A DNA stretch of 64,000 nt from an uncultured Candidatus Saccharibacteria bacterium (GTDB lineage Bacteria > Patescibacteriota > Minisyncoccia > JAHISW01 > Tagabacteraceae). A model generated the notes under the pieces. It ran no database searches. It was given only the letters and a program-made list of their open reading frames with translations, and was not told where the DNA came from. Below, in pieces: positions 3,043 to 64,000 of this stretch. The stretch is taken from positions 34,376 through 98,375 of the forward strand of contig CAZRMW010000001.1 in the NCBI GenBank assembly GCA_964601305.1, given 5' to 3'. Every line of letters begins with the position of its first letter. The first letter of the stretch is position 1. The position numbers were made by a program, and so were the translations under genes.

Positions 3043-6000
3043 CTAAAACAACCCCTCCGGCGATGTGGTAGCTGTGTTTTCTATCCATTCAATAAGAGTT
3101 GCGGTGATAGCCGAAAGACCATCTCCAAGTACGCCGAGTAAATTGTTTTCAAAAGTAACATTACTTAAACTCGTCGTAGAATTTTCTACTACAACAGCTG
3201 CCTTCGTACCCCACGGCCCACTGTAGTTATGCTCTTCAAATCTCGCATTTTCTATACTCACATTTTCAGAATTTACAGCACGAATCCCATGAGGATAATT
3301 ATTTTTAAATAAAGCATTTGCTATCTGCGCTGTAGACCCTTCTAGCAAAATACCCGCTTTGTCTCTTCCTCCAGACATTACGCTCCCCGCATACTTCATA
3401 GTAAATCCACTTGCCACAAGAGATCCAGTTTCGGAAATATTTATCCCAGCAAACTGCCCAGCTTGAGGCATCGTAGATGTTTCATCGTTGTTAGAATCCC
3501 CACTTATCTCATCGTCATAAATACTTGTAAAAATTATGTCACTCGGATTCTGTCCATCTATTACAAAATTTCCGTTTACATTTAATGTTTTCTCTCCACC
3601 CTTTATTACCACTCCGTTTTCAATAGTTAATTGCGAAGATTCTACTACCGTCGGAGTCTCATATCCATTTAAATAATAAGGTATATCATTTGATTTTAAA
3701 GTTTTTGTTGAATTAGTATTAGTTAAATTTCCCCAAATATTAATGGAGTTGGGATTGTTATTTGACCCACTGTTTCCAGAAAAACTTCCCAGCTCTCCCG
3801 AGGAATAAATTGCACCTCCAGAATTAGAAGTAAAAGTATTGTTATTTGCGATTGTATTTGAATTGCTTAAATAAAGTCCTCTTAAATTTTCTAAAAAAGT
3901 ATTATTGTTTATTGTCGGCTCTCCATTTTCTGTGTATACACCATCAGCCTCATTGCCCTCAAAAACAGAGTTTGCAATTTGCGAATTAGAATTTTTTAAT
4001 CTCAAACCATAAACTTTTGAATATTTAAAACTGGAATTAGATACAGATATTTCTGGCCCCCAAGAGACAAGCAATGATTTATCAAAAGAGTTGTTATAAT
4101 ATTTTCCACCATAGCTAAAATTAGTATATTCAAAAATAGATCCATTTTCTGCATTTTCGTTTATGCAAATACCAAACCAATCTCCAGGATTAGGATTTTC
4201 TTGAGCACTCGTAAAAGCTATTGGCTCACTCTCTGTGCCTTGTGCCAAGATTTTTCCCAGAATATTAAACCCCGAATCTCCATTAAACTTAATTTCAACT
4301 CCAGGCTCTACGGTTAATAAAACTCCACTTTCAACAACTGCGTTTATATTGTCCACCAACACTGGATTGTTTAGTCTTCTTATTGTTAAATTTCTATCTA
4401 TATTTTTATTTATAGTTAGTATGCTATTTACACTATTTGCAAATTTCGGAGTACCTTTGTTTCCTAAAAAATCATTGTTTGTGTACCAGTTTTCTGTATC
4501 GTATCTTTCCATTGTATATTTATCTGTATCTCCTGCAGGCCACGCCCCCTCTGGTGTACTATCTATTGTTGTAGTAGCTGTCGAAGTAGCTTGCACCAAA
4601 ACTAATCTCTCTCCACTATTACTAAGCCCATTTCCAAAAGACCCTATATAATCTGCTTCCACATCTGGCACTGAGGTATCGTCCGTTCTTTCTATCAAAT
4701 AATACTCGCCCGACCCAAGAGTACCTGACAAATTTATATATGGTCCGTTGTCTGTTTCTGAAAAAAGTACCCAGCCATCCAAATCTATTCCGTTTTCTGT
4801 ATTATTAAAAAGTTCTATCCATTCATCGTAAGCCGAGTTGTCCGTACCCGCCCATGCGATTTCGTTTATTAAAATCGAATGCTCTGCAAAAACTTCTTCA
4901 GGTGTTTCAGGTGTCGTGCTTGCTGTTTCTGGTGTAGTCGTAGCAACTTCTGAAGTTGAATCTTCCTCTGGAAGTTCAACCTCGCTAATTGAGTCGTCTT
5001 CTATAACAGGCGCCTCCTGAGGATTGTTTGGGGAAGAAACACTTTTTGTTGCAACAACTATCGAGGTCGAACCTCTATAGCGAGGTTCAACCTCACTAAT
5101 TAAGTTGTTGTCTTTTGTGTCCGCCATTGTTTCCACAACTGCAAAAACAGCAGAAACCGCAGTATATTCTTTTTCCTGTTTTTGTGTAGCCCTTTGATTT
5201 GCTTGTTTTTCATCTTTTTCAAAGGTTGAATCTTTATCTTGAAAATTTAGCTTTGAAGTTGTACTTCCTTCAGGAAGTCCAACTTCGTTAATTAAATCAT
5301 TCGTTTGATCTTTTTTTTCTTTGTCAAAAACATCTTTAATTTTGTTGCCAACATTTTTTATTGCTCCCCAAAACCTTGAGCCACTACCCGGTAAAAAATC
5401 TTCTGCAATTGTTATGAGCGCTGTTTTAGGCACAGGCGGTTTTTCTAGTAACGATTCGTCGTTTCGAGCCTTCTCTACTTCTTGAAAGAATAAATTAATT
5501 GCCCCTGCCACGGATATGACTGCCTCACGAGATAAACGGTTCCAGTAGCCCTGGAGGATCGGTTTGTAATCTTCATTGTCGTCCTCCAACTCATACTCTG
5601 CCAACTTCTTTTCACCGTCTTTGTCCCATACCTCCTTTGTTCTTGCCAATTTAAAATAACTTCCATCTTTATCAACACCAAAGCCATATTCATCTCCATC
5701 TATTATTTCTGGCTTATTATACCTTTCATAGCCCTCGCCATTTGCAGTATCTTTACTTAAAAAATAATTATTAGAATAATTTGCTAAATAATCAAAATAT
5801 TCTTCTATGCTCTCAAGAGAAGCTGGCTCATAACTATTTAAGCTATCCGCAATTTTAAAATTTTCTATATTAAATTGTTTTGAAAAATTTTCAAGGGGGC
5901 TATCTCCAGGGTGTGGGTCATTTCTGGTGTGTTCTGGCACGGCCATATCTTCTAGTAAATGCAGAGTAAATCCAAGAGTATAAAACGCGTCTTTTTCATT

Positions 6001-13393: not shown

Positions 13394-13440
13394 AAGCTTA
13401 TTATATCACAAATTCAAACACTTTTGGTATATCTACACCA

Positions 13441-13467
13441 AAATAACGGAGTTGAACTCCGTTATTT
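13441..13467. terminator. palindromic hairpin AAATAACGGAGTTGAACTCCGTTATTT (repeated at 17431..17458)
   Basis: Perfect inverted repeat plus T-run downstream of the 13477..14673 gene; second copy 4 kb away. Confidence 0.5.
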
Positions 13468-13476
13468 TCTGTTATT

Positions 13477-16582: not shown

Positions 16583-16661
16583 CTAATATGGTGAAAATCA
16601 CCCGAGATTTCACCATATTAAACAAAAAATCGCCAGTTGAGCTTAGCCCAACTGGCGATTT
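16583..16661. repeat. conserved 54-nt hairpin repeat (ATATGGTGAAAATCACC..GAGATTTCACCATAT) followed by terminator hairpin; second copy at 17468..17548
   Basis: 54-nt stretch almost identical at both loci; each lies 3' of a small-membrane-protein gene, followed by a GC hairpin plus T-run. Confidence 0.5.
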
Positions 16662-17320: not shown

Positions 17321-17395
17321 ACTTCCCTTTTTGTAGTTTTCTCTAAATTTTATACCACAAATTGTTTTTCAACACAATGGTAACCTATCTAGTGC
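17321..17395 (-). promoter_or_regulatory. conserved promoter repeat (minus strand: -35 TTGTGT, 17-nt spacer, TGG-TATAAAAT extended -10)
   Basis: About 70-nt repeat nearly identical to 17922..17998, containing TATACCACAAATT on the plus strand (reverse complement AATTTGTGGTATAAAAT). Confidence 0.45.
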
Positions 17396-17430
17396 TATAG
17401 CAGATGTCGTGTTCCATTTTTAAAATAACA

Positions 17431-17548
17431 AAATAACGGAGTTCAACTCCGTTATTTTAAATATTAGCTAATATGGTGAAAATCACCAGAGATTTCACCA
17501 TATTAAACAAAAAACCGCCAGGCCTTTTCAGGTTCTGGTGGTTTAAAT
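17431..17548. repeat. composite of three hairpins: AAATAACGGAGTTCAACTCCGTTATTT palindrome, conserved 54-nt ATATGGTGAAA hairpin, and terminator
   Basis: Repeat copies of 13441..13467 and 16583..16636; T-runs on both strands. Confidence 0.45.
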
Positions 17549-17921: not shown

Positions 17922-17998
17922 CCAATTTTTTGTATTTTTAAATTCTCTAAATTTTATACCACAAATTATTTTGAATTACAATGGTAACCTATCCACTG
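17922..17998 (-). promoter_or_regulatory. conserved promoter repeat (minus strand: TTGTAA, 17 nt, TGG-TATAAAAT)
   Basis: Sigma70-like -35/-10 with extended -10; duplicate of 17321..17395. Confidence 0.45.
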
Positions 17999-18099
17999 CT
18001 ATCGCTTTAAATAGGTTCCATTTTCTATCCTCTCAATTTCTCACGCTTGTCCGCCTTTGGAGGAATCGTAGTATTTAGAGAGAATAGAAAAAATTAAAT

Positions 18100-18141: not shown

Positions 18142-18179
18142 TTAAAATCAGCGAGACTAGCGAGGTTCAACCTCACTAG

Positions 18180-26501: not shown

Positions 26502-27611
26502 TTAAAGAGTAAATTTATCTAACCAGCTTTTCATACTAGATTCTTCTGTTCTAACAATTGTAGGAATATCATCTACTTTTTCTTCATTCTCTTTTATCTC
26601 GTCTCCCACCTTTTCCTTTTCTTGCTCTGGTTCTTGCTCGGAACTTAGACTGTCTTTTTCTTGAGGTTGAACCTCCTTTGGCGGTTCAACCTCGCTAATT
26701 GAATCCGTCGTCGTTAGAATCTCTTCAATCTCCCCTGTTTCTTGAGGCACAGTACCTTCAGCAACAACAGCAGCACCTACTTTCATTAAAAAGTTTTTTA
26801 GATCATCCTCAGAGAAAAACTCCATAGAAATTTTTTTAACAGGTCCCTTTTTCTCAACAGAAACTCTTGTTCCCAGAGCATCTGAAAGTTTTCTTTCCAA
26901 ATTGCCTGCTTCTGGATCTTCTCTTCTCTCCAACTTTATTTTAGCCTTAGTTTTATTTTTAAGAATTTCACGCGCGAGATGCTCTGTAGCCCTCACATTC
27001 ATTTTTCTAAAAATAATTTCTTTGTATAATTCTTTCTGATCATCTTCGTGCTTTATTAAACTTAAAAGTGGCCTCGTGTGCCCTTCTCTAATAAGCCCTG
27101 CTTTTAGCCCTTCTTGCATATCTTCCGGCAAGCTCAAAAGTCGAATAGTGTTTGAAACAAATTCTCTACTCTTACCTACTTTTAGGCCAACTTCATGATG
27201 GCGCATTTTAAAATTGTCCACCAATTGCTTAAAAGCTACAGCTCTTTCTATTGGACTTAAGTCTTCTCTTTGTATATTTTCTATTAAAGCAAGTTCTAAT
27301 TTTACTTGATCTGAAGGTTCTTCTCTAATAATTACTGGCACTTGAGTAAGCCCCGCAATTTGAGACGCACGCCACCTTCTTTCTCCTGCAATAATTTCAT
27401 ATTCTATTATAGTGCCTGTTGGCACTTCTTTTTCTCGACGGATAACTACAAGTGGCTGCAAAACGCCGTATTGCCGAATAGATTCTGAAAGCTCGTTTAG
27501 CTTGTCTTCATTAAAAATACTACGAGGCTGAAAAGTATTTGGCTTTATTTTGTCTACTTCAACAAAAAAAACCCCGCTTTCTTTTCTTATTCTTGGAAGT
27601 TCGTTGTTCAT
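26502..27611 (-). CDS. parB: ParB/Spo0J partition protein with acidic low-complexity C-terminal tail
   Basis: GERRWRASQIAGLTQVPVIIRE ParB box; start at MNNELP (27611); tail region contains an inserted palindromic element (TDSISEVEPPKEVQPQ). Confidence 0.85.
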   Translation of the reverse strand: MNNELPRIRKESGVFFVEVDKIKPNTFQPRSIFNEDKLNELSESIRQYGVLQPLVVIRREKEVPTGTIIEYEIIAGERRWRASQIAGLTQVPVIIREEPSDQVKLELALIENIQREDLSPIERAVAFKQLVDNFKMRHHEVGLKVGKSREFVSNTIRLLSLPEDMQEGLKAGLIREGHTRPLLSLIKHEDDQKELYKEIIFRKMNVRATEHLAREILKNKTKAKIKLERREDPEAGNLERKLSDALGTRVSVEKKGPVKKISMEFFSEDDLKNFLMKVGAAVVAEGTVPQETGEIEEILTTTDSISEVEPPKEVQPQEKDSLSSEQEPEQEKEKVGDEIKENEEKVDDIPTIVRTEESSMKSWLDKFTL

Positions 27612-27667
27612 TGATTTTATTATACAAAAATTGACCAAACGAGGCAAATTTTATATTATAAATTTAG

Positions 27668-29629: not shown

Positions 29630-29660
29630 AAAGCCCTTGCCTTATTGGCAAAGGGTTTTT
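29629..29660. terminator. terminator hairpin AAGCCCTTGCC-ttatt-GGCAAAGGG plus T-run
   Basis: GC stem plus TTTTT immediately after the stop of 29312..29629. Confidence 0.5.
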
Positions 29661-29674
29661 ATTATACAAATACA

Positions 29675-31750
29675 ATGAAATATTATATTTTTACATTTGG
29701 GTGTGGCGCCAACCACGCTGACAGTGAAAGAATCGCCAGAAAATTGAAAGCCCTCGGCCACAAAAAAGCAGTTTCTTCCAAAGAGGCTAGTTTAATAGTG
29801 CTCAATGCCTGCTCTGTTAGAAAATCTGCTATAGATAGAGTTTATGGCAAAGTAAAAAATCTAAAAAACAAGCAAATTATACTAGCAGGCTGTCTCCTTG
29901 ATTCAGATAGAAAAAAATTAGAAAAAAAAGTAAAAGCTATTTGGCATCCAGACGAATATTTCGATTTATCCCCCATAAACGAAACTTCTTTTCGTGCGCT
30001 TATACCAATCACAAAAGGTTGTAATAATTTTTGTTCGTACTGTGCTGTGCCCTACACACGAGGAAAAGAAAAATCTCGCCCAGCAAAAGACATAATCAAT
30101 GAAATTAAAGAATTAATAAAAAATAATTATAAAGAAATATGGCTGTTGGGACAAAATGTAAATAGCTATAAATCTGGGAAAACAAATTTTCCAAAACTTC
30201 TTCAGAAAATAAACAAGATTGAAGGTAATTTTTGGATAAAATTTACTTCCCCTCACCCAAAGGATTTCTCCAACGAATTAATACAAACTATAAAAAAATG
30301 TGAAAAGGTTACCAACTACATAAACCTGCCTGTTCAATCTGGGGACAATGAAATTTTGAAGAAAATGAATCGAAAATATACACGCCAGCACTACATTAAG
30401 CTTGTAAACAAAATTAAAAAAGCTATTCCAGATGTAGCAATTTCTACAGATACTATCGTAGGATTCCCTGGAGAAACACGCACTCAATTTAAAAACACTC
30501 TAGATTTGTACAAAAAAATTAAATTCGATATGGCTTTTATTTCACAATACTCCCCTCGCACAGGCACCGTATCCGCACGAACTATGAAAGACAACATAAA
30601 ACACATAAAAAAAGAAAAGCGCGACAAAGAGCTTACAAAAGTATTAGCCAAATATTCGCTCGAGAAAAATAAAAAATTAGTTGGGCAAACTATAAAAGTT
30701 TTAATTGACTCACAAAAAGACACTAATTTTTTTGGCCGCACAGAAGGCAACAAAATAGTTAAAATAAATAAAACTGATTCTATAAGTATAGGAAAATTTG
30801 TAGATATAAAAATAACAAAAGCTACCTCTTGGAAGCTGGAGGGAGAAATCGCTCCTACAAAAATTATAGTAGTTTTGGGCCCCACAAGCTCTGGAAAAAG
30901 CGACTTAGCTGTAGATATAGCTCTTCAATTCCCTTCTGAAATTATTTCTGCAGATTCTAGGCAAGTTTATAAACACATACCTATCGGTACAGGGGCTATA
31001 ACCAAAAAAGAAATGAAGGGTATTTCCCATCATTTGCTAGGTTTTGTAAATCCCAAAAAAACATATACTGCAATAGATTTTAAAAAAGATGCAGAAAAAG
31101 CTATAAAAGAAATTCTAAACAAAAACAAAATACCAATAATATGTGGTGGCACAGGGTTTTATATACAAACACTTTTAAGTGGCAATAATTTACCAAAAGT
31201 AAAACCAAACTGGCCTCTTAGAAAAAAAATGGAGAAAAAAACAGCAGGCCAACTTTTTAAACAACTTCAAAAGCTCGACCCCAAACGCGCTAAAAACATA
31301 GATTCAAAAAACAAGCGGCGTTTAATTCGTGCTATCGAGATTGCTATCAAATTAACGAAGTCGGACTTCGATAGTTCACTACCGAAATCCGACTTCAATA
31401 GTTGGGATGTGCTGTATTTAGGTATAGAAAGAAAAAGTGGTAATTTAGAAAAACTTATCAGAAAAAGAATTTTGGGACTTATAAAAAGAGGGCTTTTGGC
31501 AGAAGTAAAAAATTTAAGAAAGAAAAAAGTCTCCTGGAAAAGAATAGACGAACTAGGTTTTGAGTATAAATACCCAGCTCAATATATCCGCGAAGAAATA
31601 AATAAAGAAGAAATGGTAGAAAAAATACTTACAGGAAATAATAAGTACGCAAAAAGACAGATGACTTGGTTTTTAAAATATACCCCAAAGACAATTTGGG
31701 TAAAAAATTCTAAGGAAGCTATGAAATTATCTAAAAAATTTTTAGACTAA
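29675..31750 (+). CDS. miaB-miaA: fusion protein: MiaB-like radical-SAM methylthiotransferase (MTTase-N, radical SAM, TRAM) fused to MiaA tRNA dimethylallyltransferase
   Basis: Start MKYYIFTFGCGANHADSE (MTTase N-terminus Cys), LNACSVR, AGC, CNNFCSYCAVP radical SAM, TRAM region; then IIVVLGPTSSGKSDLAVDIAL (P-loop), ISADSRQVYKHIPIGT, HHLLGF = MiaA. Single continuous 692-aa ORF. Confidence 0.8.
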   Translation: MKYYIFTFGCGANHADSERIARKLKALGHKKAVSSKEASLIVLNACSVRKSAIDRVYGKVKNLKNKQIILAGCLLDSDRKKLEKKVKAIWHPDEYFDLSPINETSFRALIPITKGCNNFCSYCAVPYTRGKEKSRPAKDIINEIKELIKNNYKEIWLLGQNVNSYKSGKTNFPKLLQKINKIEGNFWIKFTSPHPKDFSNELIQTIKKCEKVTNYINLPVQSGDNEILKKMNRKYTRQHYIKLVNKIKKAIPDVAISTDTIVGFPGETRTQFKNTLDLYKKIKFDMAFISQYSPRTGTVSARTMKDNIKHIKKEKRDKELTKVLAKYSLEKNKKLVGQTIKVLIDSQKDTNFFGRTEGNKIVKINKTDSISIGKFVDIKITKATSWKLEGEIAPTKIIVVLGPTSSGKSDLAVDIALQFPSEIISADSRQVYKHIPIGTGAITKKEMKGISHHLLGFVNPKKTYTAIDFKKDAEKAIKEILNKNKIPIICGGTGFYIQTLLSGNNLPKVKPNWPLRKKMEKKTAGQLFKQLQKLDPKRAKNIDSKNKRRLIRAIEIAIKLTKSDFDSSLPKSDFNSWDVLYLGIERKSGNLEKLIRKRILGLIKRGLLAEVKNLRKKKVSWKRIDELGFEYKYPAQYIREEINKEEMVEKILTGNNKYAKRQMTWFLKYTPKTIWVKNSKEAMKLSKKFLD

Positions 31751-39507: not shown

Positions 39508-40725
39508 TTATCTCACAGAAGAAATTCCTTTTAATTTTAAAATAATATCTGGCAAAATTTTTAATACATAGTCTACTTCTTTTTTTGTAGTCTCTTTGCC
39601 CATCGTAAATCTAAGCGAACCATGAGCATATTCATGTCCCATACCAATCGCACGTATCACGTGTGAAGGCTCCAAACTATCCGAAGTACACGCCGAGCCC
39701 GTAGAGCAAGCCACGCCCTTAGCATCAAGATATAGCACCATTGCTTCTCCCTCCACACCACGTACAGATATATTTACATTATTAGGAAGCCTATCTTCTC
39801 TTGAACCATTTAAAACACTGTTTGGTATCGTTTTTAATAATTTATCTATAAAATAATCCCTAATTCCAATAAGTCTTTTTGATTCTTTTTCTTTATTTTT
39901 TTGAACTAATTCAAGCGCTTCTCCAAAACCCACAATTCCAGATACATTTTCCGTACCAGACCTTAAGCCCATTTCTTGCCCACCGCCTACGACCATCGGA
40001 TCTATTTTAATTCCTCTTTTTTTATAGAGCATTCCTACACCCTTTGGCCCATATATTTTAGAACCATTTAAAGTCATTAAGTCTACACCCAATTTCAAAA
40101 CATTTAGATCCAAATAAGCCGGTGCTTGCACAGCATCTGTATGTATCAGTGGAGTTTGCAGGTTGTAGGTTGTAGGTTGTAGGCTTTTTTTGAAATTTCT
40201 GATTATTTTTGCGATTTCACGAATTGGCTGTATAGCACCAATTTCATTGTTTGCATACATTATAGAAACCAAAACAGTCTCTTTTCTTAAAGATTCCTTT
40301 AATTGTTTCAAATCTACAATGCCATTTTTATCTACATTTAAATAAGTAATTTCCCAGCCACTTTTTTCTAATCTTTCACAAGCATGAAGCACAGCGTGAT
40401 GCTCTATTTTTGACGTAATAATATGCTTGACACCCTCTCTGTTGGAAGTCGGACTTCCAACAGAATTGGCTATGCCGAAAATTGCTAAATTATCACTCTC
40501 TGTGCCACCGCCAGTAAAAATAATCTCGTCTGAATGGGCGTTTATTGTCTGTGCCACTTTTAATCTAGCCTCCGAAATTGCTTTTTTGGCTTCCCTGCCT
40601 TCTTCATAAATAGAAGATGGATTGCCAAAAACATCGCTAAAAAACGACTCCATTGCTTTTTTAACTTTTGGATCTAAATATGTGGTAGCTGAATGATCTA
40701 AATATATCCTTTTATCTTTATTCAT
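39508..40725 (-). CDS. iscS: cysteine desulfurase (class V aminotransferase, IscS/NifS)
   Basis: YLDHSATT, LNGSKIYGPKGVGMLY (PLP-Lys), SGSACTS (catalytic Cys loop); start at MNKDKRIY (40725). The upstream 33 codons of the track ORF are a repeat element. Confidence 0.85.
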   Translation of the reverse strand: MNKDKRIYLDHSATTYLDPKVKKAMESFFSDVFGNPSSIYEEGREAKKAISEARLKVAQTINAHSDEIIFTGGGTESDNLAIFGIANSVGSPTSNREGVKHIITSKIEHHAVLHACERLEKSGWEITYLNVDKNGIVDLKQLKESLRKETVLVSIMYANNEIGAIQPIREIAKIIRNFKKSLQPTTYNLQTPLIHTDAVQAPAYLDLNVLKLGVDLMTLNGSKIYGPKGVGMLYKKRGIKIDPMVVGGGQEMGLRSGTENVSGIVGFGEALELVQKNKEKESKRLIGIRDYFIDKLLKTIPNSVLNGSREDRLPNNVNISVRGVEGEAMVLYLDAKGVACSTGSACTSDSLEPSHVIRAIGMGHEYAHGSLRFTMGKETTKKEVDYVLKILPDIILKLKGISSVR

Positions 40726-40790: not shown

Positions 40791-40816
40791 TGAGTAAGTT
40801 TGAGCGAGGTCCAACC

Positions 40817-41410
40817 TCACTCATTTAAAATTTTGTCGATTAGAGCGGCCGTTTTATCGACAGTTTTAACCGGATTATTATAAAAATTATACCGCACAAC
40901 CCCCTTTTTGTCGACAATGACAAGGTGGGGCCAACCTCCTAACCCATACGAAGCTGTCGCCTTTATAACTCCAGACCCATGTTGTTTTTTGCTAACAATC
41001 AAGACCGTCGATAAAAAAGGTCCAAACTTTGTCTTAAACCCTTCAAACTCTTGAGGGTTTTTTGATGTCCACGGCACGCCCACAACTTTCACATCCTCGC
41101 GCGACTCATACTTTTCCGCCAGTTTATTCAGAACTTTGACCTGCTCACGGCAGAGAGGCGCACCAGGTCACCAGAAAGCCAAAACAGTAACACTCCCTTT
41201 AGAAAACTCGGAGAATTTCACATTGTCTCCGGTATCAATATTGGTTGCCGTAAAATCCGGCGCCATTTTGTCCACTGCGGAATTTGTTTCAACAACAACC
41301 ACCGGAGTGTCCTCTTCCACGGAAGTATTGAAGGCACCTGCTGTGCCAACAAAAAGAAGTGAGAAAATCGCCATCGCCAGAATCGTTAGAGTTAAAAGTC
41401 TCGTTTTCAT
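40817..41410 (-). pseudogene. disrupted thioredoxin-fold (TlpA/AhpC-TSA-like) secreted protein gene, GC-rich
   Basis: N-terminal part (signal peptide ...APDFTATNIDTGDNVKFSEFSKGSVTVLAFW) stops at an in-frame TGA exactly where the redox motif is expected (FW-TGA-PGAPLCREQ). C-terminal part (VKVVGVPW...GWPHLVIVDKKGVV) is in another ORF. GC content clearly above its neighbours. Confidence 0.5.
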
Positions 41411-56885: not shown

Positions 56886-58019
56886 TTATTTACATTTTTT
56901 AGAAATTAATAAACATATCAAACCAATTATAGAAAAAATAACAAACAGACAAAATACAAAAAACAATAAAAATCTTTTCTCCAAATTACCAATGGTTTTA
57001 CTAATATAATTATCCTCAGAAACATTCACTAAAACCCAATAAAAATCTTTTTCTGGGCTTTTGCCAAAAACTTTCTCAAAACCTCTGTAAATTTCAAAAC
57101 TTCCTTCCGAAGGATGTATGTGTCTATAAGTAAATATTGAGTTTTTATCTCTCAATTGCCTTTTTTGGTAGTCAAACAATATTTTTTCAGAAATATCTGG
57201 ATAATCATCTAAAAAATTGTCGCCACTACCTGTAAGATTTCCAAACTCCTTTGACTCATCAGGGTGTGTGATATAATAACCATCTTGGTTGACTAAAAAA
57301 GTTAACTCTCCACCCCCTTGGAAAGATCTAATATCTTCTAAAAAATAATCAGCATAAACATTTGCTACCATAATCCCAGCACGCTTGTTGTTTTTATCAA
57401 AAACGGTAGTTGCATACGTTAAAATAGGAATGTAATCCACAAATTCTTGAGTGCCACGATTTTCAAGCTCGCCATCTTTTGTACTTAAATCTATTTCAGA
57501 TATAAGAACTTCTCCTTCCTCTAATTTTATAGCTTCACCAAAATAGTACTGTCCCCTTCTGTTTTGGAGTTCGTTTTTTGTAATTATTTTATATTGACCA
57601 TTTAGTTTGAGGGTAGCCGTACGACTAATCTCAACTTTAACCACCTCATCACCATACTCATCAACATAAAACAGTTGATAATATGCAGGGTTCTCTTTTA
57701 TAAATCTTAGAAGATCAGATTCTAATTCTTTTTCAAAAGATTTCTTTTCTTGAACTTTTGTTTCTCTTATCAGATTGTTCAAACTAGAAAGTCCACTCAA
57801 AAATAAAATATCGTTTGCCGCTGTTCCCGGAAAACTGTTTATTTCAACAAAAAGAGTCTCTATGCGTCGGCTAATCGTGTCTACAGCATTAGCTGTGTAG
57901 TTTTTTGAGTTTTCTTTTAAATTGAAATAGTCTCTTGCAGCCAATAAACACAAAAAAGACAAAAGAATTAGGCAAATTAAACCTGCAACAAATTTTTTAT
58001 TGAGTAATCTGGTTAGCAT
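56886..58019 (-). CDS. bitopic membrane protein with extracytoplasmic sensor-like domain
   Basis: N-terminal and C-terminal TM helices flanking about 300-aa domain. Confidence 0.4.
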   Translation of the reverse strand: MLTRLLNKKFVAGLICLILLSFLCLLAARDYFNLKENSKNYTANAVDTISRRIETLFVEINSFPGTAANDILFLSGLSSLNNLIRETKVQEKKSFEKELESDLLRFIKENPAYYQLFYVDEYGDEVVKVEISRTATLKLNGQYKIITKNELQNRRGQYYFGEAIKLEEGEVLISEIDLSTKDGELENRGTQEFVDYIPILTYATTVFDKNNKRAGIMVANVYADYFLEDIRSFQGGGELTFLVNQDGYYITHPDESKEFGNLTGSGDNFLDDYPDISEKILFDYQKRQLRDKNSIFTYRHIHPSEGSFEIYRGFEKVFGKSPEKDFYWVLVNVSEDNYISKTIGNLEKRFLLFFVFCLFVIFSIIGLICLLISKKCK

Positions 58020-58626
58020 AATTTTTTGTCTCTTTGCTTAAATAAAGATACCCTCCAACAATAGACACTAACAATATCCCCAAAACCAACCAGACATAAA
58101 CTATTTTGTTTTTTGAAATTTCAAAATCTTGCCTAAACTCATCTAAAACATCTACATTGTACAAAGTTTGTAATTCAAGAGTATATTTTCCAGACGGAAA
58201 TTTTAAGTTATTAAAATTTTTAGTAAAAACCCTCTCGGTTTCCACCACTAAATAATCTTGTTCCATATGGATTTCTTTTCCAGAACTATCCAAAATACTA
58301 AATAATAAATTCACTGGTGTTGGCTCTGTACCAAAACTTGTAAATATAACTCTGACCGACAAATCCTCGATACTATCAACTGTCTTGTCGTCAGTTTCAA
58401 AATTAATGTCAAATAAATATTTGGTTGAGTCTTTTTTTTCTAAAGCAATTTCCACACGACCTTCTTCTGTTTTACGCTTTTTTACAATTTCGATGCCCCC
58501 ATTGTCGTGTTTTATATTTGGATAAAAACCTATCACTAGCAAAATAGACACAAAAGACACTAGTAGCAATGGCAACGAAAAAACAAAAAACTTTTTTAAC
58601 ACATTCTCACTTTTTCTTCGTTCCAT
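57997..58626 (-). CDS. surface protein carrying the conserved 'LFDIN...TLYNV' module plus C-terminal TM anchor
   Basis: Module shared with 58607..59602 and 60424..61614. Confidence 0.5.
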   Translation of the reverse strand: MERRKSENVLKKFFVFSLPLLLVSFVSILLVIGFYPNIKHDNGGIEIVKKRKTEEGRVEIALEKKDSTKYLFDINFETDDKTVDSIEDLSVRVIFTSFGTEPTPVNLLFSILDSSGKEIHMEQDYLVVETERVFTKNFNNLKFPSGKYTLELQTLYNVDVLDEFRQDFEISKNKIVYVWLVLGILLVSIVGGYLYLSKETKNYANQITQ

Positions 58627-59602
58627 TGTTTCTTTTTATGTTCCAAAAGTACAAACTCGCAACGACTATAAAAATCAAAACAAGCAAAACATAGACATAC
58701 CAAGTTTCTACTATTTTCCTCTTCTCAATAATTTCAAAACTAACCTTAAACTCGTCTTCTACATTCACATTGTAAAGTGTTTTTACAACAAGCGTATATC
58801 TACCTAACGGCAAATCAAGATCCTTAAACCTTTCTATCAAAACTCCTTCGGTTTCTACCACTATTTGATCCTTTTGGCTATGAACTATTTCTCCGGTTTT
58901 ATTTACAATATTAAATGTTAAATCAACGGGAGTTGGCACTCTTCCAAAACTTATAAATATTACTCTCGAAATCAAATCTTTTATGTTAGTTATTGATACT
59001 TTGTCTATTTCAAGATTGATATCAAAAAGTTGTTCTGGTATTTCTTCTGTCTCTGTCTCTGCAGTTTCTGCTGGAGCTTCAGCCCTCACAACAGGCACTA
59101 TTGTAACATAAGTTTGTACAGATTTTTTATCATAAACATTGTTATTTTGGATATCCAAAACAAAAGTACTGCCATCTACTTCTATAATTCCTTCTCCAGT
59201 TTTTTTAGCTCTAAAAGTAGCCGTGCCAAAAGCAGTGCCAGAAGAAACGCCCCTTGGGTAGCCCCCCGTTTTTATTAAAATCCCTTCATTATTATTTATA
59301 AGATCATATCCTGGTTGTTTTAAAGAGACCCAACTATCATTCATTTTGAAAGAGTTGACTTCTAAAAGATCTGGCGGGTAATTTAACTCTATTTTTGTCG
59401 TATAGTTGTTCACTCCAGCTGGGTTTATGCCGACCATAAGCTCAAATTGCTCTCCTTCAACAACATTTATATTTACTGGACTTAAAAAAACAGAAGTATC
59501 GGCTAATACGTCTGGAATTAAGAACAAAGTATAAAGAATTAAGCAGACAACAACAAAAGACGTCCGCAAAAAAACATTCTTAATTCGTGATTCATAAATC
59601 AT
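58607..59602 (-). CDS. cohesin-like domain protein with conserved C-terminal module and TM anchor
   Basis: N-terminus MIYESRIKN paralogous to 42848..44608; cohesin-like GEQFELMVGINPAGVNNYTTKIELNYPPDLLEV; C-terminal IPEQLFDINLEID module. Confidence 0.5.
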   Translation of the reverse strand: MIYESRIKNVFLRTSFVVVCLILYTLFLIPDVLADTSVFLSPVNINVVEGEQFELMVGINPAGVNNYTTKIELNYPPDLLEVNSFKMNDSWVSLKQPGYDLINNNEGILIKTGGYPRGVSSGTAFGTATFRAKKTGEGIIEVDGSTFVLDIQNNNVYDKKSVQTYVTIVPVVRAEAPAETAETETEEIPEQLFDINLEIDKVSITNIKDLISRVIFISFGRVPTPVDLTFNIVNKTGEIVHSQKDQIVVETEGVLIERFKDLDLPLGRYTLVVKTLYNVNVEDEFKVSFEIIEKRKIVETWYVYVLLVLIFIVVASLYFWNIKRNNGTKKK

Positions 59603-59614
59603 AATTCTTTTTTA

Positions 59615-60094
59615 CTAATTTTGATTATTAACTACCACAGGCCCTACATTTACAATAATGTCTCTCTCTGGACTGTACAAAATTGCTTGTTGTTTTTGTA
59701 GATAAATTAACACCTTATCGCCATCAATTGAGCCATGATAAAACGGTTGCTCATTTATAAGTGTCTGTGCGTCTACGATAGTAGCCACACTAGGCAACTC
59801 GTTTTCTGGTAAAACAAAATGTTCTCTCACTTGTTTTACAACCTTTTCAATTTCCTCTTGTTGTTGTTTTTGTTTTTCTACTTCAATTTTTTCTGCAGAA
59901 GTTTCGGTGGCACCAGTAAAGGTAAGGTAAGCGCAAACAAAACCAAAAACAGCCAATATTAGCAGGAGAATAAAAACAACTTTTTTCTTTTTACCATTAG
60001 AATCAGGTTTTCCTGAAAATTGTTCTTGTAATTCTTGATCATTAAATTCCCTTAATTCTTCTATTTCTTTTTCTCCTTTTGTTTTTCTAGGCAT
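59615..60094 (-). CDS. membrane-anchored protein with 'QPFY...SPERDIIVNVGPV' domain
   Basis: Paralogous C-terminal domain to the middle region of 62218..62997. Confidence 0.45.
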   Translation of the reverse strand: MPRKTKGEKEIEELREFNDQELQEQFSGKPDSNGKKKKVVFILLLILAVFGFVCAYLTFTGATETSAEKIEVEKQKQQQEEIEKVVKQVREHFVLPENELPSVATIVDAQTLINEQPFYHGSIDGDKVLIYLQKQQAILYSPERDIIVNVGPVVVNNQN

Positions 60095-60423
60095 AATAAA
60101 AATACAGCTAAACCTTCTAATAATAAAAATTAGATAGATTTAACTGCGCAAAGTTATAAACTGTTCAATTGTTACCGTAATTATACACCGTTCACATCTA
60201 TTTGCAAACCATGCAAGAAGTATTTATTTAAAATCTTTTATAGCAATAGTCTTCCCTCTTGATTTTACTACCACCCTTTGTTTTTCTCTGAACTTTAATT
60301 TTTTGATAATCTCAATAGGCAAAGTTGCCGTCATACTACTACATTTTAACTTCCAGTACTCAGCTTTCAGACTTAACCAAATATTTTTGTCTGTCTACTG
60401 ACGGCTGGTAGCTGTTTACTTAT

Positions 60424-61614
60424 TTACGAATTTTCTTTTTGTTTTCTTCTTTTCGACAAGACAACAATAAATCTTGTAGCAACTACCAAAAGTGTTATAA
60501 ATATAATCCAAAACCAAATAGTCTTGAAAAACGACTTCTTTTCTTCTTTTATTTCAAAATCTTGCCTAAACTCATCAAATACACCTACATTATAAAGTGT
60601 GTACAGCACAAGTGTGTATTTGCCAACAGGAAGCTCTTCGGCCATCTCAAACGTTTTTCGTTTAATTGCTTCTGTTTCTACAATAATATCAACATCTTCT
60701 CCTTCGTCTCTGTACACCTCTTTCCCTTCTTCGTCCAAGATAACAAAAGTTAAATCTACAGGAGTTGGCACTCTTCCAAAACTAATAAATACAACTCTAG
60801 CAACTAAATCTTTTATGCTAGATATTGCAGAGTTGTCTATTTCTAAATTAATATCAAAAAGTTGTTCGGGAATTATTTCTTCTTTTTTACATCTTTTATC
60901 CAATTCTCCTCTTGTTGCCTCGTCTAAAAAACCTTCTCCTGCCCCAAGATATTTCTCTTGAAATTTAATAATCGCTTCCTTGGTGGCATTTCCAAAACTC
61001 CCCGTAACATTTTTTGTAAACACTCCCTCATCCTCTAAACACAATTGAAGATATGCGACATCTTTGTTTCTATTTCCCTCTATTAACTCCTGATTAAAAG
61101 AATGCTCTATTGGAACAGATTTGGGAATTTTAAACGGATACCACGCTTCTTTGGCGCGACTAAGTATATTTTTTGGATTAGCTTCATAGCTAAGAGTTAA
61201 TATTTTATCAAACCACTCAACATTCACTGTTTTGTCGGTCAGTGTTTCAAATGAAATAGAAAATAATTCTCCTGTACCAGAAAACCCTTTTGGAACACCA
61301 CCAACGAAAGAAATAGTATTACCAACGATTTTGGGCTCTTCAACCCACAGGTTCAAAATAGAATTATCTTTTGAAACTGAAACAACCTTCAAGTCTTTAG
61401 CAGGAAATCTAATAGACCCCTCCACAACACTAACTTTTCTCCCTCTCGTGTCCACCATGGCACGTGCTTCTATTCGTTGCCCTGCACTATAAGTTTCACT
61501 TCTTCCGGGTATTTCTGCGGGAGAAATATATAAATCAGCTCGAGCAAAAACTAGAAATGGGAAAAACCCTAGAAGTACTAAAAACAAATATTTGATTTTA
61601 TTAAATTTTTTCAT
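60424..61614 (-). CDS. cohesin-like plus peptidoglycan-binding-like domain protein with conserved C-terminal module and TM anchor
   Basis: Signal peptide; cohesin-like ...NSILNLWVEEPKIVGNTISFVGGVPKGFSGTGELFSISF; PG_binding_1-like VTGSFGNATKEAIIKFQEKYLGAGEGFLDEATRGEL; C-terminal IPEQLFDINLEID...TLYNVGVFDEFRQDFEI plus TM. Confidence 0.5.
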   Translation of the reverse strand: MKKFNKIKYLFLVLLGFFPFLVFARADLYISPAEIPGRSETYSAGQRIEARAMVDTRGRKVSVVEGSIRFPAKDLKVVSVSKDNSILNLWVEEPKIVGNTISFVGGVPKGFSGTGELFSISFETLTDKTVNVEWFDKILTLSYEANPKNILSRAKEAWYPFKIPKSVPIEHSFNQELIEGNRNKDVAYLQLCLEDEGVFTKNVTGSFGNATKEAIIKFQEKYLGAGEGFLDEATRGELDKRCKKEEIIPEQLFDINLEIDNSAISSIKDLVARVVFISFGRVPTPVDLTFVILDEEGKEVYRDEGEDVDIIVETEAIKRKTFEMAEELPVGKYTLVLYTLYNVGVFDEFRQDFEIKEEKKSFFKTIWFWIIFITLLVVATRFIVVLSKRRKQKENS

Positions 61615-61634
61615 AATATTATTTAAATTTTAAC

Positions 61635-61671
61635 CAGCCTGCCCCGTGAGAATCAAAGATTCTTTTACGGG
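61635..61671. terminator. hairpin CAGCCTGCCCCGT..ATTCTTTT..ACGGGG overlapping the stop codon of 61665..62231; homologous copy inside the CDS at 63164..63199
   Basis: CCCCGT/ACGGGG stem; same AGCCTGCCCCGT...ATTCTTCGGGG unit occurs in-frame in the 63006.. gene. Confidence 0.45.
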
Positions 61672-62231
61672 GTCCACTCAAACACCAATACTGCAAAATC
61701 AAAAGCATCGACTACACCATCTTTGTTTATATCAACACAAGATTGAAGAGGTTTTTCTACCTTCCAATAAAAAATAAGTGTTGCAAAATCAAAAGCATCT
61801 ACATCTCCGTCAAGATTAAAATCTGCTCCATTACACTCACTTACAACACCTGCTCCTCCACCTATTATTCCACCTCCGCCCCCCCTAACAGCCGTAGCCG
61901 TTTCTTCTGCGACTGCTGTTGCCGCTGTTGCTGTAATATCGGCTATAACTTCCCCTACACCGCCTTCGTTGTTAAAGTTAGTACTGGAACTTTCCCCAGC
62001 AAGCGCCTCACCAAAAGACCCAATCATCAGATAATTACTGGATGTTGCACTCGCAACACCCCCACTATTAAAACTTGATCCTCTTATACGAAAATTTGAA
62101 CTACTTACAGTTTCTGCGCACACATGTCCATATACAAAAAAACCTCCGAAAACAGATATGCACAAAATAATAAATATATTTTTTCGCATAATTTTCACAT
62201 TCATACATATATAAAACCTATTCCTTTCCAA
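61665..62231 (-). CDS. secreted Gly/Ala-rich protein with C-terminal dockerin-like domain
   Basis: Signal peptide; ADFNLDGDVDAFDFATLIFYW...DINKDGVVDAFDFAVLVFEW = two dockerin Ca-binding repeats. Confidence 0.55.
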   Translation of the reverse strand: MERNRFYICMNVKIMRKNIFIILCISVFGGFFVYGHVCAETVSSSNFRIRGSSFNSGGVASATSSNYLMIGSFGEALAGESSSTNFNNEGGVGEVIADITATAATAVAEETATAVRGGGGGIIGGGAGVVSECNGADFNLDGDVDAFDFATLIFYWKVEKPLQSCVDINKDGVVDAFDFAVLVFEWTP

Positions 62232-62997
62232 TAATTATCACTGCGTCGGCATTGCTTGTTGCTTCCCCTTCCGGCAAGATATCTGTAGAAGAAATATTTA
62301 ATTCTTTTTCCAATCCTTCAATATCTTCTCCTGTTAAGGTTAAATTTATTAACAATGTTTCTTCATGTTCCTGCAAAGAGGCATCGGATGTATTTAAAAT
62401 TCTATAGCTACCTATAGCTTGCAAAGTATTGGCCAAGCTGTTGGCAGCCCCATTTACACCAGATCCATTTCTAATATCTAAACTTATTTTCTTTTCTTCC
62501 TTGACCAACTCACTTTGTGAGTTTAGGTTTTTTTCTTTTTGAATTGGTTTTGGTGCTTGGGATATTTGTTGGTTGTTTTGCTGTTCGTTTTGCTCATAAA
62601 CAGGGCCAACATTAACCAAAATATCCCTTTCTGGGCTGTATATAATTGCTTTATCTTTATAAATTAAAACTTTGTCTCCATTTATAGCTCCACTAAAAAA
62701 AGGTTGTTGTACCACAAGAGTTTCTGCATTTTGAACAGTCGCTAAATTTGGTTCCTCGTTGGGTAAAATGATAAACTTAGAAACCTGCTTTTTTGTTTCT
62801 TCAACCTCTTCCAGGTACAATTCTTTTTGAATTTCTGGATTAGAGAGAAGCGCTACTTGTTTTTTTGCTTCACGATAGTCTGCAAAAATCCATACAAAAC
62901 CACTTGCAAAAATTATAAATAAAGCAAACTTAAATATCCCTTTCACGCCTACTTGTCTAATTAATAATTTTGTTATATTTAAAACTTGCTTGTTCAT
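62218..62997 (-). CDS. membrane-anchored protein with QPFF...SPERDILVNVGPV domain and C-terminal LytR_C-like domain
   Basis: ISLDIRNGSGVNGAANSLANTLQAIGSYRILNTSDAS resembles LytR_C; N-terminal TM. Confidence 0.45.
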   Translation of the reverse strand: MNKQVLNITKLLIRQVGVKGIFKFALFIIFASGFVWIFADYREAKKQVALLSNPEIQKELYLEEVEETKKQVSKFIILPNEEPNLATVQNAETLVVQQPFFSGAINGDKVLIYKDKAIIYSPERDILVNVGPVYEQNEQQNNQQISQAPKPIQKEKNLNSQSELVKEEKKISLDIRNGSGVNGAANSLANTLQAIGSYRILNTSDASLQEHEETLLINLTLTGEDIEGLEKELNISSTDILPEGEATSNADAVIIIGKE

Positions 62998-63005
62998 AAT
63001 TTAAT

Positions 63006-64000
63006 TTATATTGTTTCTGGAGTTGTTGTAGAAACTGGTTCCTCAACAACATGCTCTTCGTATTCGCAACTTAGATCATCTTCTGTTGCGCTTTCATCGT
63101 GATTTAAGGCATCTGGATCCATACAGCCCAAAATCAGCTCGGGTTCTTGCTCCTGAATTAATTCAGCCTGCCCCGTTAAATCCGTAGGATTCTTCGGGGT
63201 ATTTAATTCAGTAGCAGTAGTCGTGGAGGTCGTTCCTTCAATTAACGAAGTTGGACTTCCCACATCCTGCGGTGTGTGAACTCCAACTTCAACAATTCTT
63301 GTTGTTGTCCCTACATTCCCCGCTTGATCTTCAGCAATAAAAGTAATTACATAAGTAGTTGTGCTAGAAGTATCTAAGCTTAATTCGTTCGGATACATCT
63401 CTTCTCCACCATCAATGCTTACTTTATACCCAAGGTTGTCGTTTACATTGTCTGTTACTGTTGCCCCCATATCGCTATATGTGCTACCTACTTCTATTTT
63501 TGCAGGGTTATTTCCAAGGAGAATTATGATTGGAGACTCAACGTCAACACTGTCTGTATTTTCATTGATTATTGATTCATTAGATATTGATTGATCATTG
63601 ATTGTTGAAGATTGATCATTTTTAAGCATTCCCTTCAACTCTGCCAATTCCTCTTTATTCAAACAAACTTCTCCACCCTCTTCCCCAATACATATTTCTT
63701 CTCTAGCCAAAATTCTATTAGCTACAAAAGCTCCGTTTAATTCTTGATTTGTTATAAATTCTTCCACTGATCCACCAAGAGAAAGCGAGTTTAATTCATT
63801 TTGAAGAACTTCTATCATCTCCTGTTGCTCTTTTATAGCCTCTAAGTTAAGGGCTGTTAATTTTTGATAATCTATCATCTTATATCCTTGCATATCCTCA
63901 TAAACCAATTCTGGGAAAAGCACTTCCACTTCCTGGGCAATCAAACCTGTTTGGCGACCATCCCCTAAAAATTCTGTGTGAGAATTTGTTTTATCCCATT
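63006..64000 (-). CDS. surface protein (5' end outside window) containing a phage tail-fibre/endosialidase-type intramolecular chaperone (peptidase S74-like) segment followed by a DUF5011/Ig-like domain
   Basis: GLIAQEVEVLFPELVYEDMQGYKMIDYQKLTALNLEAIKEQQEMIEVLQNEL matches the S74 chaperone helices; PIIILLGNNPAKIEVGSTYSDMGATVTDNVNDNLGYKV...AEDQAGNVGTTTRIVEV is DUF5011-like. The reading frame stays open upstream of the track's start to the window edge. Confidence 0.5.
   Translation of the reverse strand, partial: WDKTNSHTEFLGDGRQTGLIAQEVEVLFPELVYEDMQGYKMIDYQKLTALNLEAIKEQQEMIEVLQNELNSLSLGGSVEEFITNQELNGAFVANRILAREEICIGEEGGEVCLNKEELAELKGMLKNDQSSTINDQSISNESIINENTDSVDVESPIIILLGNNPAKIEVGSTYSDMGATVTDNVNDNLGYKVSIDGGEEMYPNELSLDTSSTTTYVITFIAEDQAGNVGTTTRIVEVGVHTPQDVGSPTSLIEGTTSTTTATELNTPKNPTDLTGQAELIQEQEPELILGCMDPDALNHDESATEDDLSCEYEEHVVEEPVSTTTPETI

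Follow-up and report, generated by a model that had tools for sequence, protein, structure and literature searches.

What does a Peptidase_S74 domain do in a cellular protein that continues well beyond it? The question is raised by the end of a 64,000-nt stretch of DNA from an uncultured Candidatus Saccharibacteria bacterium (contig CAZRMW010000001.1, positions 34,376 to 98,375; the whole stretch is called the window here). There the initial annotation had recognised a segment resembling the self-cleaving chaperone of phage tail fibres, in a gene that runs off the window. We found that the complete S74 domain, with an intact catalytic dyad, lies inside a very large repetitive protein. The interpretation that we favour, with somewhat better than even confidence, is that of a MAT-like trimeric surface fibre, in which S74 would fold the stalk and then cleave, releasing the C-terminal piece.

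The S74 domain and the fibre that carries it

The minus strand of 63006-64000 holds a single long reading frame (Table 1). Its start in the list of open reading frames (ORFs) is an internal TTG (63944), upstream of which the frame stays open. The frame (window:63006-63998:-) translates to 330 aa and a stop, and the S74-like peptide quoted in the initial annotation is found in it. The gene was extended through contigs L019, L020 and L021 from a metagenome search in which a neighbouring 259-aa protein served as exact-match handle; all three match the window without a difference over at least 5,773 nt, and their fibre proteins are the same. L019 lengthens the ORF by 1,511 residues to 1,841 aa and is 5'-truncated, without a start, and residue numbers such as Ser1484 and Lys1489 follow L019. 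The gene product is therefore larger than 1,841 aa, and the window encodes its C-terminal 330 residues. In the library of 50% clusters the protein itself is present only as the truncated P0178, and P0178 and L019 both break off within repeats.

Searched alone, the window fragment matched Peptidase_S74 (PF13884) at profile positions 36-58 with 18.7 bits, below the Pfam cut-off of 22, because the window end truncates the domain; the first 28 S74 residues, with the catalytic Ser1484 and Lys1489, are just past it. On L019 the Pfam match covers profile positions 1-58 of 58 (residues 1484-1544) with 58.7 bits (E 7e-16). L019 reads DTCDGTVT-SDERLKENVV, in which TVT-S1484-DERL-K1489 is the S-D-x-x-x-K catalytic motif. 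The S74 assignment made from the truncated sequence thus became significant and full-length once the upstream part was added, and the cleavage serine to which the initial annotation had pointed is present there with its partner lysine. The window's 330 aa matched 24 PHROG families at E<=1, mostly tail-fibre or baseplate (best 9.6e-14). Fifteen families at E<1e-4 are all virion structural (14 tail or tail-fibre, one head-and-packaging virion protein), and all PHROG matches fall on the profile's C-terminal end or close to it. A search of the same 330 aa against NCBIfam gave no match. Positions 29-93 of a 93-position family hidden Markov model (HMM) align with aa 1-65 of the fragment (6.4e-23), and the six-frame translation of the window holds one copy of this family, at its very end. 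By sequence, the PDB entries matched were the intramolecular chaperone (IMC) of the phage S16 gp37 long tail fibre (6F45, 9.7e-7) and the MyRF ICA (7DC3, 1.7e-3). The fragment was modelled as a monomer with AlphaFold2 (AF2) from a 71-row alignment (mean predicted local distance difference test score, pLDDT, 72), and a homologue, P0005, was modelled as well. The long terminal S74 helix was predicted at aa 44-75 with pLDDT ~90, and the ICA/CIMCD fold is seen in the predicted structure of the homologue. Serine and lysine are invariant in a 14-sequence alignment (A1) that includes extension-bearing relatives. They also occupy the catalytic columns in 277/277 S74 domains, these being the domains aligned from the first position, and 57 of the 277 have more than 100 aa downstream.

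The 1,480 aa preceding S74 form at least five fibre super-repeats of 183-268 aa each, mapped by motif. They share the constant segments TATSTFAKGISIASSTPDVTSNALYNN..LYWNG, TATSTMPWWSQGALYASSTLTVAGNT and FDTNTLFVDASNNRVGIGTTSP, and each has a variable insert and is closed by ..GNVGIGTTSPFTTLGISG. Tandem Repeats Finder reported nothing in the gene, and a BLAST self-comparison returned the self match only. GNVGIG/RVGIGT motifs occur nine times in the fibre and fit the capping-loop motif V-G-(G/N)-x-x-x-P-x-x-x-L, which belongs to trimeric beta-helical MAT fibres and is common to MyRF (Caulton et al., PMC10769870). The segment ..FYT..SERMRITSTGNVGIGTTSP.. (fibre aa 801-1000) matches Bdellovibrio MAT structures (8OML, 3.3e-7; 8OND, Bd2133, 4.9e-7), with further, weaker matches of the same residues to 8OJN (4.6e-3) and 8OL4 (0.02), and the motif copy right before S74 aligns with the MyRF stalk motif GRVGINTDRPDEALVVHG. 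Judged by these alignments, the stalk motifs are homologous to solved trimeric MAT fibres. By the initial annotation, the lack of any fibre or beta-helix region upstream of S74 would have refuted the idea, and such a region is there: it is repetitive, with motifs of GNVGIGTTSP type that correspond to the beta-helical capping loops of solved Bdellovibrio MAT fibres and of MyRF. The repeats are followed by a final 349-aa unit with weak LamG/ConA-like matches (residues ~1187-1299), and the last short stalk segment before S74 carries a Cys pair. Thr, Ser and Gly make up 35% of the protein. Its six Cys form three close pairs (1469/1478, 1614/1623, 1803/1822), and this close spacing fits an extracytoplasmic protein.

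A complete homologue of 1,321 aa (L025), 41% identical, was found by scanning metagenomes with the N-terminal repeats. It begins with a signal sequence (a basic N-terminus, a 19-residue hydrophobic stretch and an ALA|AP site), carries the same stalk repeats and has the S74 motif TTSDRRAKENI. Its linker is nearly identical to that of the window's fibre (EELCIGDTGGEVCLNKKELTELK) and it has three PF16403 domains. Both of its flanks are housekeeping genes (aminoacyl-tRNA synthetase, ScpA/B, D-Ala-D-Ala carboxypeptidase, GT4 glycosyltransferase, FtsW and MurG). The 47 large ORFs of the window include ClpB, topoisomerase I (TopA), a MiaB-MiaA fusion, aminotransferases, sensor kinases and solute-binding proteins, together with surface proteins of cohesin, dockerin, peptidoglycan (PG)-binding and LytR_C type. 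No phage or extracellular contractile injection system (eCIS) genes were found in the 63 kb downstream, within the window. Because the genes around both are of cellular type, we regard the fibre gene as cellular, and the description of its product as a cellular surface protein is borne out by these neighbours and by the signal sequence of L025. By analogy with the signal sequences of homologues, the window's fibre would be exported by the Sec route. From N to C terminus its anatomy would then be a signal sequence (seen in homologues only), at least five stalk-plus-knob super-repeats, a weak LamG/ConA-like region, a stalk segment, S74 and the extension, whose hairpin would be held by a disulfide.

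The region beyond S74 and its relatives

The protein continues for 265 aa beyond the end of the S74 model, close to the 250 residues first estimated, and S74 is not at its extreme C-terminus. In the AF2 model the S74 helix is separated by a low-confidence linker from a two-Cys beta-hairpin (strands 101-106 and 109-114) and a helix (115-130), EICIGEEGGEVCLNKEELAELKGML, with pLDDT 84-90. The same element is present in the P0005 model, and it is kept in L025, P0001, P0004, P0005, P0022, P0023, P0077, P0189, P0192, P0202 and P0320, a distribution drawn from relatives retrieved by fibre searches. No Pfam family matched the hairpin-helix when the window's 330 aa were searched. The DUF5011/Ig-like domain of the initial annotation was confirmed as PF16403 (39.8 bits, above the Pfam cut-off of 27) and is modelled as an Ig-like sandwich at 157-238 with pLDDT 95-98; the homologue's Ig-like domain matches Ig/PKD/Rib modules. 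The disordered tail that follows contains a Cys-bracketed module, GCMDPDALNHDESATEDDLSCEY, a type found in six tandem copies in the sortase-family proteins P0072/P0073 and once in P0064. Its 23-aa consensus is GC(T/M)DP(D/E)A(L/N)NY..(A).. DDxSC(E/Q)Y, for which there is no Pfam family. The 265-aa extension has no transmembrane (TM) segment (maximum 19-residue Kyte-Doolittle mean 0.72) and no SLH, dockerin or other recognised anchor, and no LPXTG motif was found along the 1,841 aa recovered. A cut before Ser1484 would yield a C-terminal product of 358 aa, 39 kDa and pI 4.05.

Table 1. Positions of the fibre gene and of other features in the window
Feature	Position	Strand	Remark
3' end of giant fibre gene	63006..64000	-	ORF open to window end
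Fibre coding sequence in window	63009-63998 (stop codon 63006-63008)	-	continues at least 4.5 kb past 64000
C-terminal two-thirds of Peptidase_S74 (GLIAQEVE strand and long terminal helix)	63804..63998	-	
Two-Cys beta-hairpin and helix, EICIGEEGGEVCLNKEELAELKGML	63609..63698	-	conserved core of post-S74 extension in CPR-type relatives
Bact_surface_Ig-like (PF16403, formerly DUF5011)	63285..63524	-	fragment aa 159-238, 4.7e-10
Acidic Thr/Glu-rich C-terminal tail, predicted disordered	63009..63284	-	pLDDT <50, aa 251-330
23-aa Cys-bracketed module in tail, GCMDPDALNHDESATEDDLSCEY	63060..63128	-	
58-nt imperfect inverted repeat in coding sequence	63240..63297	.	two copies of 13-nt palindrome GARGTYSRACYTC
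GARGTYSRACYTC family sites	4971-5286, 18162-18174, 26663-26693, 31357-31396, 40445-40457, 40806-40818, 63247-63290		
Co-oriented gene: TM segment, conserved ~100-aa domain, LytR_C	62218..62997	-	starts 8 nt past fibre stop

The initial annotation had stated that S74 normally ends its protein. When the first 75 aa of the window fragment were compared with 1.84 billion cluster representatives, 17,017 proteins were found at E<=1e-3. In the best 150 representatives the distance from the end of S74 to the C-terminus is at most 30 aa in 92, 31-100 aa in 41 and more than 100 aa in 17. Thirteen loci from IMG/VR match the S74 part only, with 31-42% identity and on ORFs of up to ~1,900 aa, and in 13/13 the ORF stops 0-7 aa after S74. 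The statement is true of these viral relatives; since in roughly one of every nine nearest relatives S74 is followed by more than 100 aa, it is a rule of phages and not a general one. The closest S74 domains, at 65-70% identity, are in P0009, which begins with a signal or anchor sequence and ends 15 aa after S74, and in P0057, which has a different extension of 247 aa. Signal sequences are present at the N-terminus of P0192, P0202, P0009 and P0058.

Several kinds of extension were seen among these relatives. One, called CPR-type here (CPR, Candidate Phyla Radiation), has the linker, the Cys hairpin and an acidic or Pro-rich tail, with or without an Ig-like domain (P0189, P0192, P0202, P0320), and the full order S74, helical linker, Cys hairpin and Ig-like domain recurs in P0001, P0004, P0005, P0022, P0023 and P0077. 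A longer two-Cys element (...ITIYD..TG.P.C...) replaces the short hairpin in P0011, P0061 and P0127, and in P0143 the Ig domain follows S74 with no Cys element in between. Other classes consist of a sorting domain of the type IX secretion system (T9SS) in Bacteroidota-like proteins (P0046, P0197, P0259, P0280, P0285), of a conserved ~310-aa domain (P0181, P0198, P0249), or of a TM segment directly after S74, the MyRF arrangement, in the bacterial relative P0188. Fibres with two or three tandem S74 domains were also observed (P0127, P0025/P0001, P0181, P0188, P0198), with Ser and Lys intact in each; if all of these copies cut, such a protein would be processed into several pieces. Three CPR fibres (P0008, P0014 and P0064) have the GNVGIGTTTP stalk motif and no detectable S74, and finish with the same two-Cys element and Ig-like end. 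A different domain of ~200 aa (DVAEQYP...GRVPVKV...GVGMKAT...), without Pfam or PHROGs match, precedes this ending. We had considered an autoproteolytic domain of Peptidase_G2 type before the hairpin-Ig end of the S74-less P0060, P0065, P0076 and P0008, and dropped it, as Pfam and PHROGs gave no support.

The names of these relatives bear on the host. P0127 is listed at NCBI as 'tail fiber domain-containing protein, partial [Candidatus Paceibacterota bacterium]'; the phylum Paceibacterota, since renamed Minisyncoccota, belongs to the CPR, and other relatives are named Parcubacteria or Falkowbacteria. A scan of genome contigs gave no match to the gene itself and only S74 relatives 32-56% identical, from Saprospiraceae, Bacteroidales and Falkowbacteria. 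The host is a low-GC bacterium, probably of the CPR/Patescibacteria.

Processing of the fibre and the alternatives

In the interpretation that we favour, three S74 domains would associate after export and nucleate folding of the trimeric stalk from the C- to the N-terminal end. The Ser-Lys dyad would then cut the chain right before Ser1484, which would free the 358-aa fragment of S74 and extension (39 kDa, pI 4) and expose the distal end of the fibre as a binding tip. A cell may use such a fibre to attach to a surface or to a different cell, as an episymbiont would to its host. Our best guess for the extension is a pro-piece: until the chains trimerise it would keep the C-terminal end, as yet unassembled, soluble or close to the envelope, and afterwards it may be discarded or act separately. 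Trimerisation, stalk folding and the cut before Ser1484 are modelled on endosialidase, T5 pb1, MyRF and Bd3182. The S74-terminated MAT Bd3182 cleaves itself at Ser782 of its SDxxxK motif, and the S782A substitution blocks cleavage (PMC10769870). Of the two possibilities raised by the initial annotation, a trimeric fibre-like surface appendage is the better description; S74 fibres are so widespread among cellular genomes that they leave no basis for deciding on a capture from phage.

Whether the cut takes place at all is the point on which a non-cleaving clamp would differ. Here S74 would be a permanent trimerisation knot, and the Ig-like domain and tail would form a covalently attached ligand-binding tip. 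The conservation of the Ig-like domain and its multiplication in L025 would suit such a tip, as would the hairpin and Ig end of CPR fibres without S74, and relatives with double or triple S74 domains would be chopped up if every copy cut. On the other hand, a purely structural use should tolerate some loss of the dyad, which is invariant in all of the aligned domains, the 57 internal ones included. Its strict conservation in internal copies therefore favours cleavage, and every characterised S74 domain, the internal one of MyRF among them, cleaves itself (PMC10769870, PMC8326128). We consider the clamp unlikely. Several observations nevertheless weigh against the cleaved and released fibre as we propose it. 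Conservation of the dyad, read from alignments, would bear on cleavage indirectly. A well-conserved Ig-like domain, three of them in L025, is hard to explain if the extension is discarded, and the hairpin and Ig end of the S74-less fibres P0008, P0014 and P0064 suggests that this module works in its own right in the mature fibre. Since the Ig module is both conserved and found on these S74-less CPR fibres, the extension is likely to be more than waste. A comparison of the N-terminal 861 aa of L025 with the PDB gave no sequence link to the conserved MAT N-terminal domain. Export and anchoring of the window's fibre would follow from what is seen in homologues, and the assignment to a probable CPR host is drawn only from how relatives are named and from what the genome is like.

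If the extension served instead as a tether, the fibre might be a release switch similar to MyRF: the precursor would be held at the envelope by the extension, and the S74 cut after trimerisation would free the assembled fibre, which would stay on the cell through its N-terminal end or be shed. MyRF itself has an internal S74 with an anchoring region behind it, the TM segment of P0188 and the T9SS sorting domain of Bacteroidota show that sorting or anchoring signals do occur after S74, and the Cys-bracketed module of the tail is shared with membrane-bound sortase-family proteins. The 265-aa extension itself, however, has none of the anchors listed above, and its tail is acidic and predicted to be disordered, so that we hold this arrangement to be rather improbable, a shade more so than the clamp. 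Far less probable again is a component of a virion, tailocin or eCIS, that is, the tail fibre of a prophage or particle instead of a cell-surface protein. PHROG matches are chiefly to tail-fibre and baseplate families, viral contigs carry the 31-42% identical S74 on ORFs of up to ~1,900 aa, and S74 fibres occur on eCIS (PMC12923769). Against this, the 63 kb downstream hold no phage or eCIS genes and the neighbours are housekeeping and surface genes, L025 has a signal sequence and housekeeping genes on both flanks, and the viral relatives end 0-7 aa after S74, unlike the window's gene.

Returning to the cleaved trimeric fibre, its nearest counterpart among known systems is the S74 subgroup of Bdellovibrio bacteriovorus MATs, for example Bd3182 (Caulton et al. 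2024, PMC10769870). These are chromosomal, signal-peptide-bearing, tail-fibre-like proteins of ~1,000+ aa from a bacterium living on other bacteria, a description that would probably suit the window's fibre too. The latter shares the stalk motif ..FYT..SERMRIT.GNVGIGT.P...L by sequence with the MAT structures 8OML, 8OND, 8OJN and 8OL4, and an S74 domain with the SDxxxK motif is found in both. The window's fibre differs in its 265 aa beyond S74, whereas MATs are described as ending in S74 or an adhesive tip. It is also from another phylum (probably CPR), larger (more than 1,841 aa) and has knob insertions in each repeat. For the conserved MAT N-terminal domain, a beta-rich unit of ~130 aa directly behind the signal peptide, there is no solved structure (PMC10769870), and the PDB sequence search that did not detect it in L025 has to be read with this in mind. 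The C-terminal intramolecular chaperones of phages (K1F endoNF, 3GW6; T5 pb1; S16 gp37, 6F45) are of the same family by HMM, PDB sequence match and the fold predicted for the homologue, and they too are preceded by a repetitive fibre. In phages, however, the domain is at the extreme C-terminus and there is no export signal, whereas the window's protein is cellular, extended and, as its homologues suggest, exported. MyRF (ICA, 7DC3) is a eukaryotic protein in which the ICA is preceded by a DNA-binding domain and followed by a TM anchor, in contrast to a probably extracellular fibre without a TM segment. The Bacteroidota proteins with S74 and T9SS domains (P0046, P0197, P0259, P0280, P0285) are cellular and do not have S74 as their last domain, but what follows S74 in them is a known secretion signal of ~75-100 aa, whereas in the window's fibre it is an unannotated hairpin-helix and an Ig-like domain. 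Databases already list homologues under the generic name 'tail fiber domain-containing protein', and nothing seen here goes against what is known of how the family works. In the literature that could be searched, no paper on such S74 fibres from CPR bacteria came up.

Surrounding features and biological meaning

The initial annotation had also described two palindromic-element insertions in the extension. Two copies of the 13-nt palindrome GARGTYSRACYTC are present, at 63247-63259 and 63278-63290 with 0 and 1 mismatch, and the two pair into one hairpin (-27.3 kcal/mol, z = -5.2). The description as insertions is borne out in part only: the hairpin reaches from the last part of the Ig domain into the non-conserved tail, one copy overlapping the last Ig strand and the other lying in a non-conserved linker. 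An insertion is plausible for one hairpin arm only. The window has 14 occurrences of GARGTYSRACYTC against 0.51 expected, it is absent from 37 unrelated loci, and one hairpin arm is 96% complementary to 5273-5296. The palindrome is often extended to GCGAGGTTSAACCTCGC plus TAATTRA, and copies are mostly paired, 18-31 nt apart. They were observed in both orientations, inside unrelated genes (a 1,133-aa beta-helix protein, the MiaB-MiaA fusion, a class-V aminotransferase and ORF 26502-27647) and, in one case, directly after a stop codon. Because the coding copies differ in orientation, frame and gene, they point to an element that acts as DNA or RNA and not to a peptide motif, and the family resembles small in-frame palindromic elements such as the Rickettsia palindromic elements (RPEs).

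The gene next to the fibre gene (62218-62997) is a possible partner of it. The gene downstream of L025 (13099-13590) encodes a protein 56% identical to aa 6-134 of its product, and a paralogue is present within the window at 59615-60094. All three are small membrane paralogues with a common ~100-aa domain (..LPNEEPNLATVQNAETL..QPFF....GDKVLIY...AIIYSPERDILVNVGPV) for which there is no Pfam family, fused to LytR_C in one of them. A universal partner was considered and rejected, since the TM/LytR_C neighbour is common only to the closest homologue and the pair is not kept at the distant L041/L042. Surface proteins are clustered at 57997-62231, where weak matches to cohesin, dockerin and PG-binding domains were obtained. 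DNA repeats of 82-141 nt with 65-82% identity are found in three of its ORFs (58118-58435, 58731-59048 and 60551-60880), which indicates a paralogous C-terminal domain. Elsewhere, the 701-aa ORF at 29645-31750 combines MiaB-type domains (UPF0004, radical SAM, TRAM) with MiaA (IPP transferase), a fusion of two consecutive tRNA-A37 modification enzymes. No large ORF is present at ~16.6-18.2 kb, where near-identical repeats occur (54 nt at 96%, 63 nt at 87%) together with a hairpin, AAAATAACGGAGTTSAACTCCGTTATTTT, that has copies at 13440 and 17430; the segments concerned are 13439-13468, 16583-16636, 17339-17521 and 17943-18005.

S74-chaperoned fibres have long been regarded as a phage device. 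An S74 fibre on a bacterial surface was first shown experimentally in 2024, in the predatory Bdellovibrio (PMC10769870). At the locus described here, the same stalk chemistry and a complete S74 domain are found in a giant, probably secreted protein of a probable CPR bacterium. Extensions of more than 100 aa after S74 in the nearest relatives include Ig modules, T9SS sorting domains and a TM segment, and a non-terminal S74 with a strictly conserved dyad raises a testable question, namely the fate and role of the piece that would be cut off. A broader idea, which we put forward tentatively and hold to be a good deal less probable than the cleaved fibre itself, is that CPR episymbionts use chromosomal S74 fibres for host recognition and that the S74 cut would also release or unmask a trimeric hairpin-Ig module acting as a tether, a secreted factor or a second adhesin. 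S74 would then be a maturation switch, as in MyRF, and not a disposable folding aid. CPR bacteria are thought to live attached to other cells by machinery that is largely unknown, and the fibre is a candidate attachment organelle of such a bacterium.

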